A stretch of 32,000 nt of DNA from Nocardioidaceae bacterium (GTDB lineage Bacteria; Actinomycetota; Actinomycetes; Propionibacteriales; Nocardioidaceae), in NCBI GenBank assembly GCA_050998615.1, contig JBPCQA010000008.1, positions 71,699 to 103,698 on the forward strand, given 5' to 3'. Of the stretch, positions 1,964 through 8,122 are shown piece by piece (positions within the stretch are counted from its first letter, which is position 1; each line of letters begins with the position of its first letter). A program made the position numbers and the translations under genes. Below the pieces are notes generated by a model, which ran no database searches, was not told where the DNA came from, and saw only the letters and a program-made list of their open reading frames with translations.

Positions 1964-1974
1964 TCTCCGCCGAC

Positions 1975-2040
1975 CCGTCACTTTCTTCCTGCCGAGCCGT
2001 CACTTTCTTCCCGCCGAGCCGTCACTTTCTTCCGGCCGAA
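1975..2040. repeat. three tandem 22-bp repeats, CCGTCACTTTCTTCCNGCCGAG
   Basis: Units at 1975-1996, 1997-2018 and 2019-2040. They are identical except position 16 (T, C, G) and the last base. The array begins 12 nt after the SDR stop. Confidence 0.9.
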
Positions 2041-2100
2041 CGCCGATGGCTCCTGGCGGAGCGCCCCTGCGCCATGAAGATGGGCTCATTTTCGAGGGAG

Positions 2101-2160
2101 CCGTCAGCTTCTTCGCGCGAGCCGTCACCAACTTCCGCGTAAGCCGTCACGCGTCCCAGA
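2101..2160. repeat. three degenerate copies of the same 22-bp unit
   Basis: ccgtcagcttcttcgcgcgag / ccgtcaccaacttccgcgtaag / ccgtcacgcgtcccaga. Each starts with CCGTCA at a 21-22 bp period, 60 bp downstream of the first array. Confidence 0.6.
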
Positions 2161-2259
2161 GGCTCTTCGTCGGCTCGACTTACGTGTACGAACCGCGTTC
2201 CTATGCCCGTCCGAACCACCGTTCGCCACGAACGCGACTCACGCCCGCGGGAGGAGCGT

Positions 2260-2654
2260 TCACGGACACGATTGGACGCCCGGCTGGACCTGCTGAACCG
2301 GCCGTGAGAGCAGACAGAACTCGTTGCCCTCTGGGTCGCTGAGAACGACCCAGCTGACATCAGATTGCTGGCCGACGTCGACACGCCGCGCGCCCGGAGG
2401 CTCAGCAATCGATCGAGTTCCTGCGAGGTCGCTACCCCATCTGCGCGCAGGTCCAAGTGCAGCCGGTTCTGAACGGTCTTGCGCTCAGGAACGGTCAGCA
2501 CGTCGATGGTTGGCCACGCGCCACCGGACGGTGCGATGCTGATCACTTCGGCATCCTCTTCGACCACCTGCCATCCCAGCACGCTGCACCAGAAGCCTGC
2601 GATCAAACGCGGCTGGACGGCGGCGATGGCGACAACTGCAATGCGGCTCGGCAT
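2260..2654 (-). pseudogene. VOC (glyoxalase/bleomycin-resistance fold) family gene with a frameshift near 2395
   Basis: The N-terminal frame reads MPSRIAVVAIAAVQPRLIAGFWCSVLGWQVVEED...RLHLDLRADGV...ELDRLLSL. The family-typical C-terminus GARRVDVGQQSDVSWVVLSDPEGNEFCLLSRP continues in another frame (2 extra nt at about 2395-2396) and stops at TGA 2262..2260. The 210-aa track ORF (to 2022) is out-of-frame read-through. Confidence 0.7.
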
Positions 2655-2732
2655 GGTGCCATTCTTGCCTTCAGCCTATCCGCACGTCAGGTAGCCGCCC
2701 GATCGCTAACCCACTTAAGGTCAAGCAAAATC

Positions 2733-2765
2733 GGTGGGCATGTGGGTTTTACCCACATGCCCACC
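2733..2765. promoter_or_regulatory. perfect inverted repeat (15-bp arms, 3-nt loop), candidate operator of the TA module
   Basis: GGTGGGCATGTGGGT-TTT-ACCCACATGCCCACC read directly. It lies 45 nt upstream of the antitoxin GTG. A -10-like TATGCT sits at 2774-2779 and an SD GAGGAGGG at 2795-2802. Confidence 0.45.
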
Positions 2766-2809
2766 TGAAGAGGTATGCTAGGTCGATCTAACACCGAGGA
2801 GGGACAGCA

Positions 2810-3094
2810 GTGAGCGCACTTGTCGGCTTCGAGCCGGTCGCCGAAGTAGCGGCTGACGATCGAGGGCGGATCGCATTCGGGCGCGCCGGTGTGCACCGCA
2901 ACGACAGATTCTTGGTGTCCATCAGCCCGAGTGGTGAGATCCTGCTGTCGCCTCTAGCCAGCATCCCAAGGCGGGAGTTGCTGGTATGGGAGGATCAGGC
3001 GCTACGCGAGTCGCTCCTGCGCGGCATGGCCGACGCCTCTCGGGGGCATGTGCACCGCAGGGATGACCTGCTCGAGGATGACGCCGACAGGTGA
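2810..3094 (+). CDS. type II antitoxin, AbrB/SpoVT-like N-terminal domain
   Basis: 94 aa. DDRGRIAFGRAG...DRFLVSISPSGEILLSPLASIP resembles the looped-hinge AbrB/MazE fold pattern. The C-terminus is acidic. The stop overlaps the toxin start (GTGA at 3091-3094). Strong SD. Confidence 0.6.
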   Translation: MSALVGFEPVAEVAADDRGRIAFGRAGVHRNDRFLVSISPSGEILLSPLASIPRRELLVWEDQALRESLLRGMADASRGHVHRRDDLLEDDADR

Positions 3095-3396
3095 GCGCGC
3101 CGCCCTTCGCGCTGGTTTACACCGATGAGGCGCTTCGCGTCCTGAAGGACCTCGCCAAGCCTGCCCACGCCAAGAAGTTGAAGAAGGTTAAGAAGACGTT
3201 GCGGTTGCTCCGCGACGTCGGCCCCGGCCATCCGGGGTTGAACTCCCACAAATACCAGTCCCTCACCGGCCCGGCAGGCGAGGAGGTGTGGGAGTCCTAC
3301 GTCGAGAACAGGACACCAGGTGCTTGGCGGCTGTGGTGGCTGTATGGACCAACGCCGGACACTCTCGCGATCCTGACAATCGGCCCACATCCATAA
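3091..3396 (+). CDS. type II toxin, RelE/ParE superfamily
   Basis: 101 aa. The C-terminal GAWRLWWLYGPTPDTLAILTIGPHP matches the RelE/ParE beta-strand pattern (xYRiiY...I.Il.Ig). 4-nt overlap with the upstream small gene. Confidence 0.7.
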   Translation: MSAPPFALVYTDEALRVLKDLAKPAHAKKLKKVKKTLRLLRDVGPGHPGLNSHKYQSLTGPAGEEVWESYVENRTPGAWRLWWLYGPTPDTLAILTIGPHP

Positions 3397-3567
3397 CGTC
3401 ATGGCGCCGCTTCCCCCGGCTGGGCCGGGCGTCGTCTCGCGCATGACGCGTCCGGCGAACCCCCCCTGCACCACGCAGGCGTACCACTCATGGATCCGGG
3501 TACCGGCGGGACTGGCGCACGACGCCGCGGCCTTGTTCAACATTGAGCGCCGTGACTAGGGTGCCTC

Positions 3568-3779
3568 ATGCCAGTTCGGTTCCTGTCCGACGCTGAACCT
3601 ATCTCGGCGACGCGCTCGACGCCCTCCGAGCTGGTGGCCACCCCGTCACTGACGAAGACGCAGCGCACATCACACCCGTGCAGCACGACCACATCAGCTT
3701 CTACGGCATCTACTCATTCGACCTCGAAACAGAGCTGCGCCGCGAAGGACGCCGTCCACTCCGCTGTCCAGCTGCCTGA
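3568..3779 (+). mobile_element. Tn3-family transposase remnant (N-terminal 10 codons joined out of frame to the last ~60 codons)
   Basis: ATG 3568 gives MPVRFLSDAE, a DUF4158/TnpA-type N-terminus. From 3600 a different frame reads YLGDALDALRAGGHPVTDEDAAHITPVQHDHISFYGIYSFDLETELRREGRRPLR*, which matches the conserved Tn3 TnpA C-terminus (...LRAEGHxVxDEDVARLSP..HINMLGRYSF...LRPL). The body of the gene is missing. Confidence 0.6.
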
Positions 3780-3927
3780 CCGACGCTCGGCAGGGCAATG
3801 GGACCGGACCAGATTCGCTCCGCTGCCAAGGTGACGTCCAGCGTCGGCTGCGCTGCAGTGGATGGCTCAAAGACGGTACTGCGACGGCGGCGTGACGATC
3901 CGTCGCGGCCGGCTGCTAAGTAACGCG

Positions 3928-4536
3928 TCAGTGCTTCTGCTCGCTAGGCAATGGACGAGGCGCCATAGAACTGGGAATATCTGACATGAACTGTGCTTTG
4001 GAGAGAAGTGTTCCTTGAGCGACCAGTGGGTTTGGAGGATCCTGATAGTTTGGGCAGTTCATGTTCACCCACCCGGCCGCATCCACCCAAAAGGCCCCCA
4101 ACATCCCGTCGGTCACATAGAAACTCTGGTCAGGATCCTCTGTTAAGAAAAGAATGTATTCGCCGGGATGAAGCAGCGCCTGGGATGGGACACCGTCTTC
4201 GGAGACGTTAGTCGGAGCCGGAGTCCCCGAGCGCGAAAGCAGAACACTAACGTTGTCGAGCGGGAACGTCCACTCAGTTGAGTCCGAGTATGTCCCTGGA
4301 CCGACGGTCGCATCAATAACCGTATCGCTCGCATCCGCTTGATTTGCCACATCTGAAGAAGTGGGGTAGGTGCAAGGCGCATCCGGAGGCAGAGGAAGTG
4401 CAGGGACAAGGCGAGATAGACTGCGCGAGCTTGCTTGACCAACCGGTGCTCGCGAGGCGGCATCTCCGCACGCCACCACCCCTAAAAGAGAGAGTGATAG
4501 AATAATACCACAACGCAATACAGACGCTGGTCTCAT
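3928..4536 (-). CDS. lipoprotein of unknown function (low-GC cassette, gene 2)
   Basis: MRPASVLRCGIILSLSLLGVVAC has a basic n-region, a hydrophobic core and a lipobox V-V-A-C. ATG 4536 forms an ATGA overlap with the upstream stop (the track start at 4545 is an alternative). No family recognised. Confidence 0.7.
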   Translation of the reverse strand: MRPASVLRCGIILSLSLLGVVACGDAASRAPVGQASSRSLSRLVPALPLPPDAPCTYPTSSDVANQADASDTVIDATVGPGTYSDSTEWTFPLDNVSVLLSRSGTPAPTNVSEDGVPSQALLHPGEYILFLTEDPDQSFYVTDGMLGAFWVDAAGWVNMNCPNYQDPPNPLVAQGTLLSKAQFMSDIPSSMAPRPLPSEQKH

Positions 4537-5372
4537 TGAGCCCATAATATCGCTCCATTGTTAGTGCAGGAATGGTTAAGCCCAGTCCCCATTGAAATCG
4601 TGTTAAAATTTTCAGCAAATACTTTGGTTGGGGGACACGTGGCGCCATAGCCATAATAGGCCTGCGCCGAATAAGACGCGTACCAGATGCCACCGTGACG
4701 GGTCTGAAGAGCTGGATTGGCGCCGACAGGGCCTAGTTGTGAGTTGCGATCTATGGGATTGCCCGAACTGAGTTCGGCTACTGAAAATGGCGTATGCCTT
4801 CCGATCCCAGAAGCTTTCACCTTGAATGCAGACCCGGGCAATTCGCCCGTCCTTCCGCCAGCATTCCATTGATAGAACCCGTTACCCACATACTTGTTCA
4901 CGTATATTGAAAAATTGGCGTAATCGGGAATTGTGACACCGCAGGACACATCGATACTCACCTTACGGTTCCCAGCGGGGCCGAAAGCTTGAACGAATTC
5001 AGACATTTGATCTCTGCAGCCAGGGTAGTTGGTTGCCGTGCCTGCTTGATAAAAGCTTCCATTTCCCAATGTCGAGGCGATCCAGACAAAGACGGTGGCG
5101 CCACTTGGTTCGTACTGGGGCAGCGGGAAATGGCCCAAGAAGCTTCGGGCTCCAGTAGCGTAGTGGTCGGTTGAATCTGTGCTTTGGGCTCCCACTTGCC
5201 AGTAATACCCGGACGTGGCCAAGCTGGCGGACGCCGCTCTGCTGGATGCGGCCGCAGCCGAGTCGCCTGGTGGGGGTGTAGCGACGCCGCCAAGTACGAA
5301 GCCAAGCGTCAGCAGCGCACCCACTGGACCCAAGCGTGAGCTGCTCGCCATCACTTTTCGCCGCATGAACAT
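4533..5372 (-). CDS. secreted protein of unknown function (low-GC cassette, gene 1), weak resemblance to G1 glutamic-peptidase motifs
   Basis: Signal-peptide-like N-terminus MFMRRKVMASSSRLGPVGALLTLGFVLGGVA. SD GAAGG lies 6 nt before the ATG. 279 aa, rich in G/Y/N/S. See findings for the motif comparison. Confidence 0.75.
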   Translation of the reverse strand: MFMRRKVMASSSRLGPVGALLTLGFVLGGVATPPPGDSAAAASSRAASASLATSGYYWQVGAQSTDSTDHYATGARSFLGHFPLPQYEPSGATVFVWIASTLGNGSFYQAGTATNYPGCRDQMSEFVQAFGPAGNRKVSIDVSCGVTIPDYANFSIYVNKYVGNGFYQWNAGGRTGELPGSAFKVKASGIGRHTPFSVAELSSGNPIDRNSQLGPVGANPALQTRHGGIWYASYSAQAYYGYGATCPPTKVFAENFNTISMGTGLNHSCTNNGAILWAQ

Positions 5373-5429
5373 GAGACGCCTTCACGGTTCCCGGCTCATC
5401 CGAACTGTTAGGGTCGGGAAGCTCCGCAG

Positions 5430-5445
5430 ATGCTTCATGAAGCAT
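5430..5445. promoter_or_regulatory. perfect 16-bp palindrome ATGCTTCATGAAGCAT upstream of the cassette
   Basis: Read directly. It lies 58 nt upstream of start codon 5372 in the least GC-rich part of the 5373-5600 spacer. Confidence 0.35.
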
Positions 5446-5536
5446 GTGTTTGAAGATATAGGCGCTGAGTACCGCATAGCGAGACGTTCGTCTACGCTCA
5501 CTCGCTTCGCAACGGTCCTGGCAGGTAGCGCAACGA

Positions 5537-5567
5537 GGCAAGTTTCTGTTGCCGGGGGGAGTGCCCC
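5537..5567 (-). terminator. two short hairpins just downstream of hpnH (weak terminator candidate)
   Basis: GGCAA-gtttctg-TTGCC (5537-5553) followed by GGGG-agtg-CCCC (5556-5567). No U-tract, so weak. Confidence 0.2.
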
Positions 5568-5600
5568 TTCCAGACGAACGTCAGCTGTTGCGGATGAACG

Positions 5601-6608
5601 TCAGCTGCGGGCGGCCCGCAGGGATTCCTTGAGGGAGCCCATGGTGGCCATCACGGCGGTGGGTTCGTAGCCGCAGTGGGCCATGCAGTTGGCGCAGCGT
5701 GGGTCGCGGCCGCGGCCGTAGGAGTCCCAGTCGGTCGACTCCACCAGTTCCTTGTAGGTGCTGGTGTAGCCGTCGGCCATCAGATAGCAGGGCCGCTGCC
5801 ACCCGAACAGCGAATAGCTCGGGATCCCCCACGCCGTACAACCGAAGTCGACGTCGCCTTGCAGGAAGTCGAGGAACAGCGGGGAGTGGTTGAGACGCCA
5901 CCGCTTGCGGTTCCCGTTGGCGAACGCCTTGCGGAACAGTTCCCGCGTCTCGGTCACACCCAAGAAGTGCTCTTGATCCGGTGCCTTCTCATAGGCATAC
6001 GCCGGGGAAATCATCATCTGGTCGACCTTGAGGTCGTCGTTGAGGAAGTCGAGCACGTCGATGATGTTTTGTGGGCTGTCGGTGTTGAAGAAGGTCGAGT
6101 TGGTGGTGACCTTGAAGCCGCGCTCTTTCAGCCAGCGGACCGCGGCCACCGCCTCCTCGAACACGCCCTCCTGACAGACCGAGGCGTCATGGCGCTCTTG
6201 CAGCCCGTCGATGTGCACGGTGAACGCGAAGTACGGCGAGGGGTGGAAGTCGAACTTGTCCCACCACTTGCGCACCAGCATCGCGTTGGTGCACAAGAAC
6301 ACGAACTTCTTTCGCGCCACCAACTCGTTGACGAGTTTGTCGATCTCCGGGTGCATCAGCGGCTCTCCACCCGCGATGGAGACCATCGGTGCCCCGCACT
6401 CCGCCATCGCCTCCAGCGCCTGCTCCACCGGCATCCGGCGACGCAACTCGTCCGCCGGATGCTGAATCTTGCCGCAGCCAGCACATTGCAGGTTGCACGC
6501 GAAGAGCGGTTCCAGCTCGACAAGCAGGGGGAACTTCTCCCGGCCGCTCAGCCGCTGCCGGAGCAGATAGCTACCGATCTTCAGGGTTTGACGCAAAGGC
6601 ATATTCAT
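5601..6608 (-). CDS. hpnH: adenosyl-hopene transferase, radical SAM (HpnH)
   Basis: 335 aa with CNLQCAGC (CX3CX2C) near the N-terminus. Full-length resemblance to HpnH (…FLCTNAML…HIDG…WGIPSY…CANCMAHCGYEP). ATGA overlap with the upstream gene. Sits in a hopanoid cluster. Confidence 0.95.
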   Translation of the reverse strand: MNMPLRQTLKIGSYLLRQRLSGREKFPLLVELEPLFACNLQCAGCGKIQHPADELRRRMPVEQALEAMAECGAPMVSIAGGEPLMHPEIDKLVNELVARKKFVFLCTNAMLVRKWWDKFDFHPSPYFAFTVHIDGLQERHDASVCQEGVFEEAVAAVRWLKERGFKVTTNSTFFNTDSPQNIIDVLDFLNDDLKVDQMMISPAYAYEKAPDQEHFLGVTETRELFRKAFANGNRKRWRLNHSPLFLDFLQGDVDFGCTAWGIPSYSLFGWQRPCYLMADGYTSTYKELVESTDWDSYGRGRDPRCANCMAHCGYEPTAVMATMGSLKESLRAARS

Positions 6609-8122
6609 GCCGGACGTACCTCCTTTGGGAGCGTGAAGTGGACTTGCTCGGTAACCACATGCCGTTCTTGTACGTCGACCGGACCGAGGCCGGCGAGCGC
6701 CTCGACAACCTCGTCGACAAGAGCACTCGGGGCCGACGCCCCCGCCGTGAGACCCACGCGTGGAGCCGCGGTCAACCAGCTCAGCGCAATGTCGGACACA
6801 TCGTCGATAAGGTACGCCGGCGTGCCCATCCGTGCCGCCGTCTCCACCAGCCGGTTGCTGTTGGAGGAGTTCGTCGATCCCAGCACCAGCACGACCTCTG
6901 ACTCCGCCGCAACCGCGCGAAGCGCAACTTGTCGGTTCGTCGTCGCGTAACAGATGTCGTCGGACGCCGGCGCCCGCAATGCCGGGAAGCGCTCACCCAG
7001 CACCGCCACGATGTCGGTTACTTCGTCGGTGGACAACGTGGTCTGGACCAGGTAGGAGACATGCTGCTCGTCGGCGACCTGGACCGTTCGAGCGTCGTGC
7101 AGGTCTTCGACCAGCACCGTCCGCCCCGGTCGCTCACCCATTGTCCCGACAGTCTCCTCATGACCGGCGTGCCCAATGAAGATCACGGTGTCTCCACGGT
7201 CACTGAATCGCCGTAGCTCCGTGTGCACCTTGGTGACGAGCGGGCAGGTCGCGTCGATGACGTCGAGGCGACGATCCTCGGCAGCCTCACGGACCGCGGG
7301 AGCCACCCCATGCGCGGAGAACACCACGGTAGCCGCATCGGGCACGTCGTCGAGCTCGTCGACGAACACCGCCCCGCGCTGCTCGAGCTCACGGACCACA
7401 TGCAAATTGTGAACTATCTGTTTGCGAACGTAGATCGGTGCCCCACGTTGATGCAAAGCGCGCTCGACAACCTCGATCGCCCGCTCCACACCGGCACAAA
7501 ATGACCGCGGTCCGGCCAGCAACACGGTGCGGGCTCCCAACGCAGCGGACCAGTCCGCCAGCCCCGGGCCGAGCCGGGCCAGCTCGGAGACGGCGTGACG
7601 TACTTTGCCGAGCGTGGCCGGGTTCACCAGCGATTGGCCAGCAGTGTCCGCCACCACCCGCACCACCACCTCCGGGCGGTTTCCGTTGAGCAGCCAGGCC
7701 GACTCCATGTCGACGGCCAGGGCACCGCAGGACGCGAGCTGTTCGCGCTCACGCCCTGCCACTACATGATCACTTGTCACGACCGAACCGATCCACACAG
7801 GCAGGCCCGAGGCCCGGAGCCGGGAGGCCAACAGGGGTGCGCTTGGGCAGCGCATCTCCGGCAGTGCACCGCCGGCATGCCTGACCACATCTGCGACGAC
7901 CACGTCTCCGGGCCGCAACCGGCCATCAAGACCGCCGGCAATGCCCACCACGGCCACCGCCGGCGCCGCCGCGAGCCGAGCAGAGGTGGCGGACCGTGCC
8001 GATCGGGTCCGTCCCACGCCGGTTCGCGTCACCGCCGAGCGTGACGACTCGACGAGTCCGCGGCGCAGGCTGGACGCCTCCATCCTGAGCGGCGTACAGA
8101 AAACCGCCCGCTGCTGATTCAC
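6605..8122 (-). CDS. ispH: fusion protein: N-terminal PNP_UDP_1/HpnG-like nucleosidase domain + C-terminal IspH (HMBPP reductase)
   Basis: Residues ~1-150 carry VVGIAGGL...GDVVVAD...GALAVDMESAWLL (MTA/SAH-nucleosidase / HpnG type). From ~residue 196, RTVLLAGPRSFCAGVERAI...DATCPLVTKVH...HAGHEE...DDICYATTNRQ is IspH with its three Fe-S cysteines. It is a single 505-codon frame with no internal stop. GTGA overlap with the shc stop. Confidence 0.9.
   Translation of the reverse strand: MNQQRAVFCTPLRMEASSLRRGLVESSRSAVTRTGVGRTRSARSATSARLAAAPAVAVVGIAGGLDGRLRPGDVVVADVVRHAGGALPEMRCPSAPLLASRLRASGLPVWIGSVVTSDHVVAGREREQLASCGALAVDMESAWLLNGNRPEVVVRVVADTAGQSLVNPATLGKVRHAVSELARLGPGLADWSAALGARTVLLAGPRSFCAGVERAIEVVERALHQRGAPIYVRKQIVHNLHVVRELEQRGAVFVDELDDVPDAATVVFSAHGVAPAVREAAEDRRLDVIDATCPLVTKVHTELRRFSDRGDTVIFIGHAGHEETVGTMGERPGRTVLVEDLHDARTVQVADEQHVSYLVQTTLSTDEVTDIVAVLGERFPALRAPASDDICYATTNRQVALRAVAAESEVVLVLGSTNSSNSNRLVETAARMGTPAYLIDDVSDIALSWLTAAPRVGLTAGASAPSALVDEVVEALAGLGPVDVQERHVVTEQVHFTLPKEVRPA

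Follow-up and report, generated by a model that had tools for sequence, protein, structure and literature searches.

A gene pair for a secreted, putatively glutamic-peptidase-like protein and a predicted lipoprotein partner in inserted DNA behind the hopanoid operon of a Nocardioidaceae bacterium

To our knowledge, no catalytic class of peptidases has fewer members or has been studied less than the glutamic peptidases, and we know of few solved structures: those of the fungal eqolisins, of the plant enzyme neprosin and of one Bacillus mucinase. Neprosin, which we take to be MEROPS family G3, and enzymes of its type are of applied interest as acid-active proteases. Eqolisins are endopeptidases that are insensitive to pepstatin and work best at acidic pH. 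In the operons for AprA-AprI/Inh, staphopain-staphostatin, SpeB-Spi and LipA-Lif the gene of a secreted hydrolase is followed by a small co-transcribed gene for a binding partner; in such operons the partner protects the producer or folds the enzyme, and Lif is membrane-tethered. The hallmarks of the eqolisins (MEROPS G1) are Gly8, Gly44, Trp67, Glu69 and a Cys47-Cys127 bridge, and these enzymes are made as preproenzymes with a basic prosegment, the preprosegment comprising about 55 amino acids (PMC6154417). At 11% identity, what links neprosin to scytalidoglutamic peptidase (SGP), an eqolisin, is limited to a common fold, a shared catalytic Glu and the placement of the assistant residue (PMC9343461); HC7 has been described as a di-glutamate mucinase (PMC13003899). 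With so limited a link between neprosin and SGP, it is plausible that a third family might be related to them in the same way. Here we describe two adjacent genes, called A and B, that lie directly behind the hopanoid gene hpnH in a 32,000-nucleotide stretch of DNA (the window) from a Nocardioidaceae bacterium (contig JBPCQA010000008.1 of assembly GCA_050998615.1). Whether they form a moved module, in which A would be a divergent secreted glutamic-peptidase-like protein and B a partner dedicated to it and tethered to the membrane (probably as its inhibitor or as a latency factor), is in our view about evenly balanced.

Both genes carry export signals, as had been proposed in the original prediction on this DNA; we judged them by rules applied to the sequence. 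The N-terminus of A combines basic residues, a hydrophobic core and AxA sites including ASA. Residues 1 to ~55 comprise a signal peptide and a linker rich in Pro, Ala and Ser, behind which lies a 225-residue all-beta domain, and a hydrophobic leader is present in 40 of the 45 A-family members with a complete N-terminus. For B we used a lipobox rule that asks for an N-terminal basic residue, an uncharged hydrophobic stretch and [LVI..][ASTVI..][AGS]-C whose Cys falls within residues 15-35, and the sequence LLGVVAC (MGSMRPASVLRCGIILSLSLLGVVA-C) follows it, its Cys being residue 26 of the 205-residue form. The ATG of A has the Shine-Dalgarno-like GAAGG 6 nt ahead of it, in agreement with the good ribosome-binding site claimed before. 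Coupled translation had also been proposed, from an ATGA at 4533-4536 shared by the stop of A and a start of B. The ATGA is present and the genes do overlap, but this start is probably not the one used: the product of B is more likely the 205-residue form from the ATG at 4545 than the 202-residue form, because a GGAG stands in front of that ATG at a spacing of 7 nt and the alignment with the N-termini of homologues is better. The 205-residue form, which overlaps A by 13 nt, is also the one recorded in the protein collection (P0005; proteins are numbered P and loci L throughout). The position of the GGAG within the 3' end of A suggests that translation of B is coupled to that of A.

In our searches of Pfam, NCBIfam, PADLOC and the PDB sequences we found no usable match for A, and among 5.8 billion clustered proteins it had four near relatives only. 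When 1.84 billion representatives were searched exhaustively with a profile, the family grew to 60 proteins at E<=1e-3; no published description of a family of this type was found in literature searches. Residue counts were taken from an alignment of 55 members, with denominators that vary with column coverage. E200 is the sole invariant residue (55/55) and forms, with Q109 (52/54) and G111 (54/54), the most conserved polar positions of the family. F107, F126, W169, C246, C269 and W277 are near-invariant, as are Q109 and G111 themselves, and W97 (48/52) and the Gly at position 99 (45/52) are conserved as well. The position of the assistant residue is Gln in the same 52 of 54 members and never Glu. 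Conserved cysteines stand at 119, 144, 246 and 269, and we infer that A folds with two disulfides outside the cell. Across the family, a median of 37 residues precedes the first beta-strand of this domain, and the hydrophobic leaders have their AxA sites 2-6 residues ahead of it. A is thus predicted to have no propeptide, the mature protein starting only a few residues ahead of this strand. In P0036, P0037, P0039, P0046, P0056, P0059 and P0065 (alignment A3) an N-terminal transmembrane anchor and a 30-50-residue linker replace the cleavable signal; an A protein that is tethered by itself may not need a tethered partner.

With four sequences, AlphaFold2 modelled A at a pLDDT of 30, whereas with 55 sequences a confident all-beta model was obtained (mean pLDDT 87, ~97 over residues 56-279, 212 residues at 90 or above). 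The predicted model is a two-sheet antiparallel beta-sandwich (7+7) like that of the eqolisins. When it was compared with the PDB by Foldseek, the best matches were to SGP (2ifr at E=3.9e-6, with 2ifw and 1s2b, ranging to 5.9e-5 at probability 1.00), the TM-score of the 2ifr match being 0.59 normalised to the target. Neprosin came next (9qr8, 7zu8, 7zva, 7zvb and 7zvc, ~5e-5 to 2e-4), in the company of Bacillus subtilis YncM (4hfs, E=1e-4, TM-score 0.59 normalised to the target), and the HC7 mucinase followed (8pn5 and 8pn3, E ~6e-4, TM-score 0.53 normalised to the query). Entries of glutamic peptidases extended down to rank 17. The best Pfam match over all 55 members was Peptidase_A4, seen in P0009 only (residues 48-123 against profile positions 12-91).

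The residues that would be catalytic can be placed at the level of motifs. We built a hidden Markov model (HMM) from SGP and aspergilloglutamic peptidase (AGP), after verifying the SGP sequence against 1s2b, and compared the A family with it in local alignments that are individually non-significant. In 8 of the 19 alignments covering Gln53, the Q109 column fell on Gln53 and G111 on Gly55; W97/G99 fell on Trp39/Gly41 in six, and P220/A221 on Pro158/Ala159 in 4 of the 5 covering Pro158. The weak Peptidase_A4 match of P0009 falls in the register with Q109 on Gln53 as well. This register is collinear with E200 being Glu136, the distance from Q to E amounting to 91 residues in the A family and 83 in SGP, and that from E to the PA pair to 20 and 22. 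A counterpart of the Gln53 Q-x-G55 motif behind the W39-x-G41 strand is therefore present in the A family, on the motif level only. Plausible counterparts also exist for Gly8 (G61, 42/45), Gly44 (G105, 44/53) and Trp67 (W125 or F126, the latter conserved in 54/55). Another register from hhalign, which put YWQVG on AWVGIDG, was discarded, as it aligns no conserved catalytic residue.

B seemed at first to stand alone: as a single query it matched only itself among the 5.8 billion clustered proteins. Searches of Pfam, NCBIfam, PADLOC and the PDB gave no usable match, with neither single sequences nor the profile matching Pfam or the PDB. In the original prediction no family had been recognised for B and only a weak motif resemblance for A; in the libraries searched, neither protein belongs to a characterised sequence family. 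Behind the lipobox Cys of B follow a low-complexity tether of ~30 residues and a domain of ~140 residues, in which PCxYP, W-T-x-P-L, PGxYILFL and a second Cys are conserved. The alternating hydrophobic pattern suggests that this domain is mostly beta, and the second conserved Cys suggests a disulfide. Judged from its sequence, B is a lipoprotein outside every known family. A lipobox is also found in the B homologues of L001, L002, L003, L086, L089 and L096. The homologues of L092/L093 have no lipobox Cys and keep a hydrophobic N-terminus, so it is membrane tethering that is conserved and not lipidation as such.

The two genes mostly stay together, even where A has diverged widely. A B homologue lies immediately downstream of A in eight of the ten contexts that we examined. 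In the loci of A's near relatives the genes overlap by 7 nt (L001 and L002) or 4 nt (L003 and L004), and distant relatives of A (30-38% identity) are paired as well, with an 8-nt gap in L086/L087, a 7-nt overlap in L089, a 2-nt gap in L092/L093 and a 7-nt overlap in L096, where the partner matches the B profile with an hhalign probability of 99.6%. In eight loci the spacing of A and B at their junction lies between -13 and +8 nt, the pairwise identities of A and B are correlated (Pearson r=0.81 over 28 non-independent pairs) and B diverges more than A. The co-occurrence of the pair in other genomes, raised as a check in the original prediction, was thus borne out: the genes overlap or abut there, and the two proteins diverge in a correlated manner. 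As a side observation, genes for extracytoplasmic function (ECF) sigma factors were seen near A-family genes in two unrelated contexts, at 8312-8719 of L092 and on the P0011 contig. In the latter the A gene adjoins the sigma factor gene, which is divergent and adjacent, with a 251-residue gene alongside. Such neighbours may hint at regulation by envelope stress.

Several results weigh against an assignment of the pair to the glutamic peptidases and a dedicated partner. The TM-scores are moderate (0.45-0.59) at root-mean-square deviations of 5-6 angstroms, and the concanavalin-like sandwich is common to lectins and glucanases, which stand lower in the same Foldseek list. The Peptidase_A4 match of P0009 scores 15.2 bits, below the cut-off of 22.3, and A of the window has no Peptidase_A4 match at E<=0.1. 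An hhalign comparison of the A family with SGP and AGP returned a probability of 0.1%, and a profile search of the family against the PDB gave nothing relevant. Glu136 is spanned by a single local alignment, which misses E200 by one residue. The position of Glu69 is variable in the A family (Q, C, A), so this G1 hallmark is not kept, and the cysteines at 119, 144, 246 and 269 are not equivalent to the Cys47-Cys127 bridge. Finally, B is missing from two A-family contexts, those of P0011 and of P0039, which belongs to the membrane-anchored subfamily (L095). By the criteria of PF01828 itself, A falls outside that family; it probably works like PF01828 enzymes.

It might also be possible that A is a non-proteolytic concanavalin-like protein (a lectin, a carbohydrate-binding protein or a glycanase) whose Q/E likeness is coincidental, and that B is a surface lipoprotein aiding A on a glycan of the cell wall or the environment. 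Galectins, GH16 glucanases and fungal lectins do appear among the Foldseek matches at E 1e-3 to 1e-2, a viral library returned generic ConA-like or jelly-roll matches only, and A has no significant sequence tie to any peptidase family. We nevertheless regard this explanation as unlikely. Of the 13 Foldseek matches at E<=0.001, glutamic peptidases and YncM account for twelve, and the E values of jelly-rolls, galectins, other lectins and GH16 enzymes are 100-1000 times worse. Retaining glucanases of this fold (GH16) need an ExDxxE-type pair of carboxylates; the 55 A-family sequences share a single invariant acidic residue, E200, and no such pair, which is not the pattern of GH16 enzymes or ConA-like lectins. 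In addition, local alignments repeatedly match the conserved W-x-G...Q-x-G block to its eqolisin equivalent. An exported enzyme with a membrane-tethered partner, the architecture put forward in the original prediction, is consistent with the predicted glutamic-peptidase-like fold of A.

The inserted segment is a small mosaic acquired by horizontal transfer, and the two-gene operon A-B is its intact cargo. If A is indeed a peptidase of the glutamic type, the pair might work as follows. A would be exported by Sec as a disulfide-bonded beta-sandwich and act as an endopeptidase, a very divergent relative of the eqolisin-type peptidases. E200 would activate water as its general base and Q109 would assist, as Glu136 and Gln53 do in SGP. 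Its activity would probably be favoured at acidic pH, as in G1 and G3. B would be made in fixed proportion to A through translational coupling and would display its domain on the outside of the membrane by means of a flexible tether, as a cognate binder of A. Because A appears to have no prodomain and B is coupled to it and held at the membrane, B would most likely keep A latent or shield the envelope; it would then serve latency or self-protection in trans, as an inhibitor in place of the absent prodomain, and would less likely be a folding chaperone or a surface anchor. A bolder version, in which A founds a propeptide-free bacterial family with a Gln/Glu dyad, its latency, folding or retention being set in trans by a co-evolving lipoprotein of a new fold family, and the two genes forming a mobile module of soil Actinomycetota, seems to us tentative and rather doubtful.

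The same evidence on pairing could be explained by a different role of B, namely that of a membrane-tethered steric chaperone or foldase like Lif, or of a surface anchor, which would make up for the missing prodomain and its function as intramolecular chaperone. G1 and G3 enzymes have a propeptide (PMC6154417, PMC9343461) and A seems to have none; the tight coupling and co-divergence of A and B and the long flexible tether behind the lipobox would suit such a role, and so would the exchange of the lipid anchor for a plain hydrophobic N-terminus in L092, where the membrane tether alone is kept. Nevertheless B resembles no known foldase, and two A subfamilies do without it, so that B is dispensable for folding of the domain in general. 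We consider a chaperone or anchor to be a minor possibility beside an inhibitory B.

The foreign nature of the pair had been claimed from hand counts of G+C, 49/120 at 4501-4620 and 41/60 at 5701-5760, which we recounted with exactly the same result. Over stretches of 600 bp the lowest G+C of the window is 0.507, at 4501, as compared with a mean of 0.669 outside the inserted segment (standard deviation 0.024, minimum 0.605). The G+C of third codon positions (GC3) is 0.561 in A and 0.527 in B, against 0.68-0.87 in 14 other genes of the window; in both scans A-B make up its strongest dip. We then used the hpnH protein as a query against the species representatives of GTDB and compared the contigs of the four closest relatives by tblastn: L006 (a Nocardioidaceae metagenome-assembled genome (MAG), hpnH identity 84%), L007 (a Nakamurella lactea MAG, 83%), and L008 and L009 (two uncultured Actinomycetota). 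All four have the order shc-ispH-hpnH, a convergent short-chain dehydrogenase/reductase (SDR) gene 34-98 nt past the hpnH match and then a membrane-protein gene that corresponds to 7-1080 of the window. The 3.6-kb segment between the SDR and hpnH genes of the window is missing from the syntenic site in all of them (4/4). Since these four relatives carry the SDR gene directly behind hpnH, the whole of 1964-5600 is an insertion, consisting of a VOC remnant, a toxin-antitoxin (TA)-like pair, a Tn3 stub, B and A. It is unrelated to hopanoid synthesis. The foreign unit proposed earlier (3857-5600) was hence rightly called foreign and drawn too short. The accompanying expectation that hpnH would be followed by the VOC gene where the patch is absent proved wrong, since the SDR gene follows instead and the VOC gene is part of the insertion, outside the conserved backbone. 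Because G+C is graded across the segment, from 0.60-0.65 in the VOC and TA-like parts to 0.52-0.56 in A and B, several acquisition events are suggested for this mosaic.

At the insertion site we found no tRNA or Rfam element. No direct or inverted repeat pair brackets the segment across its full length; only tandem repeats specific to each end were seen. At one junction, exactly where the SDR stop meets the segment, four tandem copies of a 22-bp unit (CGAGCCGTCACTTTCTTCC...) stand at 1949-2047, with looser copies about 100 bp further in (2098-2118 and 2118-2150), and the repeats reach into the 3' half of the VOC open reading frame (ORF). At the other junction a 20-nt tandem duplication (TTCCAGACGAACGTCAGCTG / TTGCGGATGAACGTCAGCTG, 17/20 identical) at 5568-5607 takes in the hpnH stop codon; no third copy of it is present at the far end of the segment. 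A contig of 2494 bp from the Logan assembly of SRR33880238 (L005) is 100% identical to 3201-5694 of the window and ends inside hpnH and inside the TA-like pair; it comes from the same strain, which is thus present in a public sequencing run.

Genes of mobility or addiction accompany the pair elsewhere too. An IS110 transposase lies beside it in L003, a weakly integrase-like gene (E=0.038) in L086/L087 and a ribbon-helix-helix (RHH)-domain gene in L089. The GC3 of the pair is below that of the flanks in the high-GC hosts L003 and L086, and host-like in L092 (58.6% GC). The close A subfamily has no relative among 185,579 GTDB species representatives, and the close A-B subfamily was not found in the plasmid, phage or JGI metagenome-contig collections as searched. 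A rare and patchy spread of this kind (~60 clusters in 1.84 billion), along with mobile elements and TA-like genes nearby, foreign composition and a B that diverges faster than A, would also fit an antagonism module, in which A is a peptidase toxin directed against envelope proteins or peptidoglycan peptides of competitors and B the immunity lipoprotein of the producer. An effector gene followed by an overlapping immunity gene is the typical order of such modules. On the other hand, A has a Sec signal only, with no dedicated secretion or targeting domain and no hallmarks of polymorphic toxins, PADLOC and Pfam gave no match, and in L092 the host-like pair may be resident. This explanation, which we hold to be rather improbable, overlaps with that of a latent peptidase and its tethered inhibitor and differs from it in the physiological target alone.

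It might finally be possible that the cassette is inert: a dead transposon would have left it behind as decaying cargo, without a function in its host. It does sit among remnants (the Tn3 stub and the degraded VOC ORF), and its codon usage is poorly suited to the host. We consider this very improbable, since the ORFs of A and B are intact and keep all residues conserved in the family, the pair and its overlap are preserved down to ~30% identity, and an independent assembly of a sequencing run contains an identical copy (L005).

The features of the segment are listed in Table 1.

Table 1. Features of the inserted segment, with positions in the window
Feature	Position	Strand	Basis and remarks
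Inserted segment, 3.6 kb	1964-5600		Between SDR stop (1963) and hpnH stop (5601); synteny and GC profile
Gene A	4533-5372	minus	ORF call; 279-aa secreted protein
Gene B	3928-4545	minus	ORF call; 205-aa lipoprotein; alternative start 4536 gives 3928-4536, 202 aa
Shine-Dalgarno-like GAAGG of A	5379-5383	minus	Read from sequence
GGAG of B	4553-4556	minus	Spacer counted to ATG 4545; inside 3' end of A
Tn3-family transposase 3' remnant	3600-3779	plus	Translation and Pfam DDE_Tnp_Tn3
Two small ORFs, TA-like arrangement	2810-3396	plus	ORF call; 94 and 101 aa, overlap 4 nt
VOC/glyoxalase-like ORF	2022-2654	minus	Pfam Glyoxalase_6, E=1.6e-13

Among the other elements of the segment, the Tn3 remnant comprises the last ~40-60 codons of the transposase and ends 150 nt from the stop of B; it matches profile positions 352-389 of 389 of DDE_Tnp_Tn3 with 26.4 bits (cut-off 24), in support of the Tn3 neighbour named in the original prediction. 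Of the TA pair named there as well, the arrangement of small overlapping genes is present, while its identity as a TA family finds no library match: the two ORFs had no match in Pfam, NCBIfam, PADLOC or the PDB. By eye, the C-terminal end of the second ORF looks like that of RelE/ParE toxins. At 2733-2765, 45 nt upstream of the start of the first ORF, two perfectly matching 15-nt arms of an inverted repeat enclose a 3-nt loop (GGTGGGCATGTGGGT / ACCCACATGCCCACC); the element may be an operator or a terminator. In the 210-residue VOC ORF the Glyoxalase_6 domain covers residues 8-95, and the rest of the ORF, rich in Ser and Arg, extends into the 22-bp repeats; probably the gene has been degraded or lengthened by read-through. 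It was tried as a part of the module and rejected, as the VOC-like neighbours in the window, L002 and L086 have no detectable similarity to each other. Outside the segment, the minus-strand ORF at 6605-8122 between shc and hpnH appears by eye to be ispH. With 505 residues it is longer than expected for IspH alone, and its N-terminal ~190 residues look like a fused nucleoside-phosphorylase (HpnG-like) domain. This long form is matched over ~500 residues in L006, L008 and L009.

If the relationship to the glutamic peptidases is true, the A family, being bacterial, free of a propeptide and invisible to sequence profiles, would extend the glutamic class. Its obligate-looking lipoprotein partner would then represent a prodomain function supplied in trans, a mode of regulation that we do not know to have been described for this class. 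For annotation, a testable function would be offered for ~60 clusters of 'hypothetical proteins' and a new partner family would be defined.

Compared with known systems, A has its best structural match in the eqolisins (MEROPS G1 / PF01828; SGP 1S2B/2IFW, AGP 1Y43, Alicyclobacillus pepG1), which are likewise secreted two-sheet beta-sandwiches and show W-x-G, Q-x-G and a later invariant Glu in collinear order. It differs from them in having no significant sequence similarity, no prosegment, another cysteine pattern, ~20 extra residues, a different C-terminal part and a lipoprotein partner gene; a conserved gene of this sort is not known to us for G1 enzymes. Neprosin, the glutamate-class prolyl endopeptidase (7ZU8/7ZVA) and second-best structural match, provides a precedent of G1 kin recognised by fold. 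It has a Glu/Glu dyad, a pro-domain ending at residue 128 and a lysine plug, whereas the A family has a Gln assistant and no prodomain, gives no match to the Pfam neprosin domain and does not combine a Glu/Glu dyad with an all-beta pro-domain. HC7 of Bacillus cereus (8PN3/8PN5) is, like A, bacterial, secreted, of glutamic type and of a related sandwich fold, and unlike A it has a Glu/Glu dyad, a carbohydrate-binding module, glycopeptide specificity and ~100 residues more, at an identity of 6-8%. B. subtilis YncM (4HFS) is a small bacterial protein of the same fold with no assigned activity, and no sequence similarity to A was detected. The operon logic of A-B resembles that of the protease-inhibitor and lipase-foldase pairs described above. 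Unlike their partners, B has no detectable similarity to any Pfam or PDB family, and the glutamic class would be new for such a pairing.

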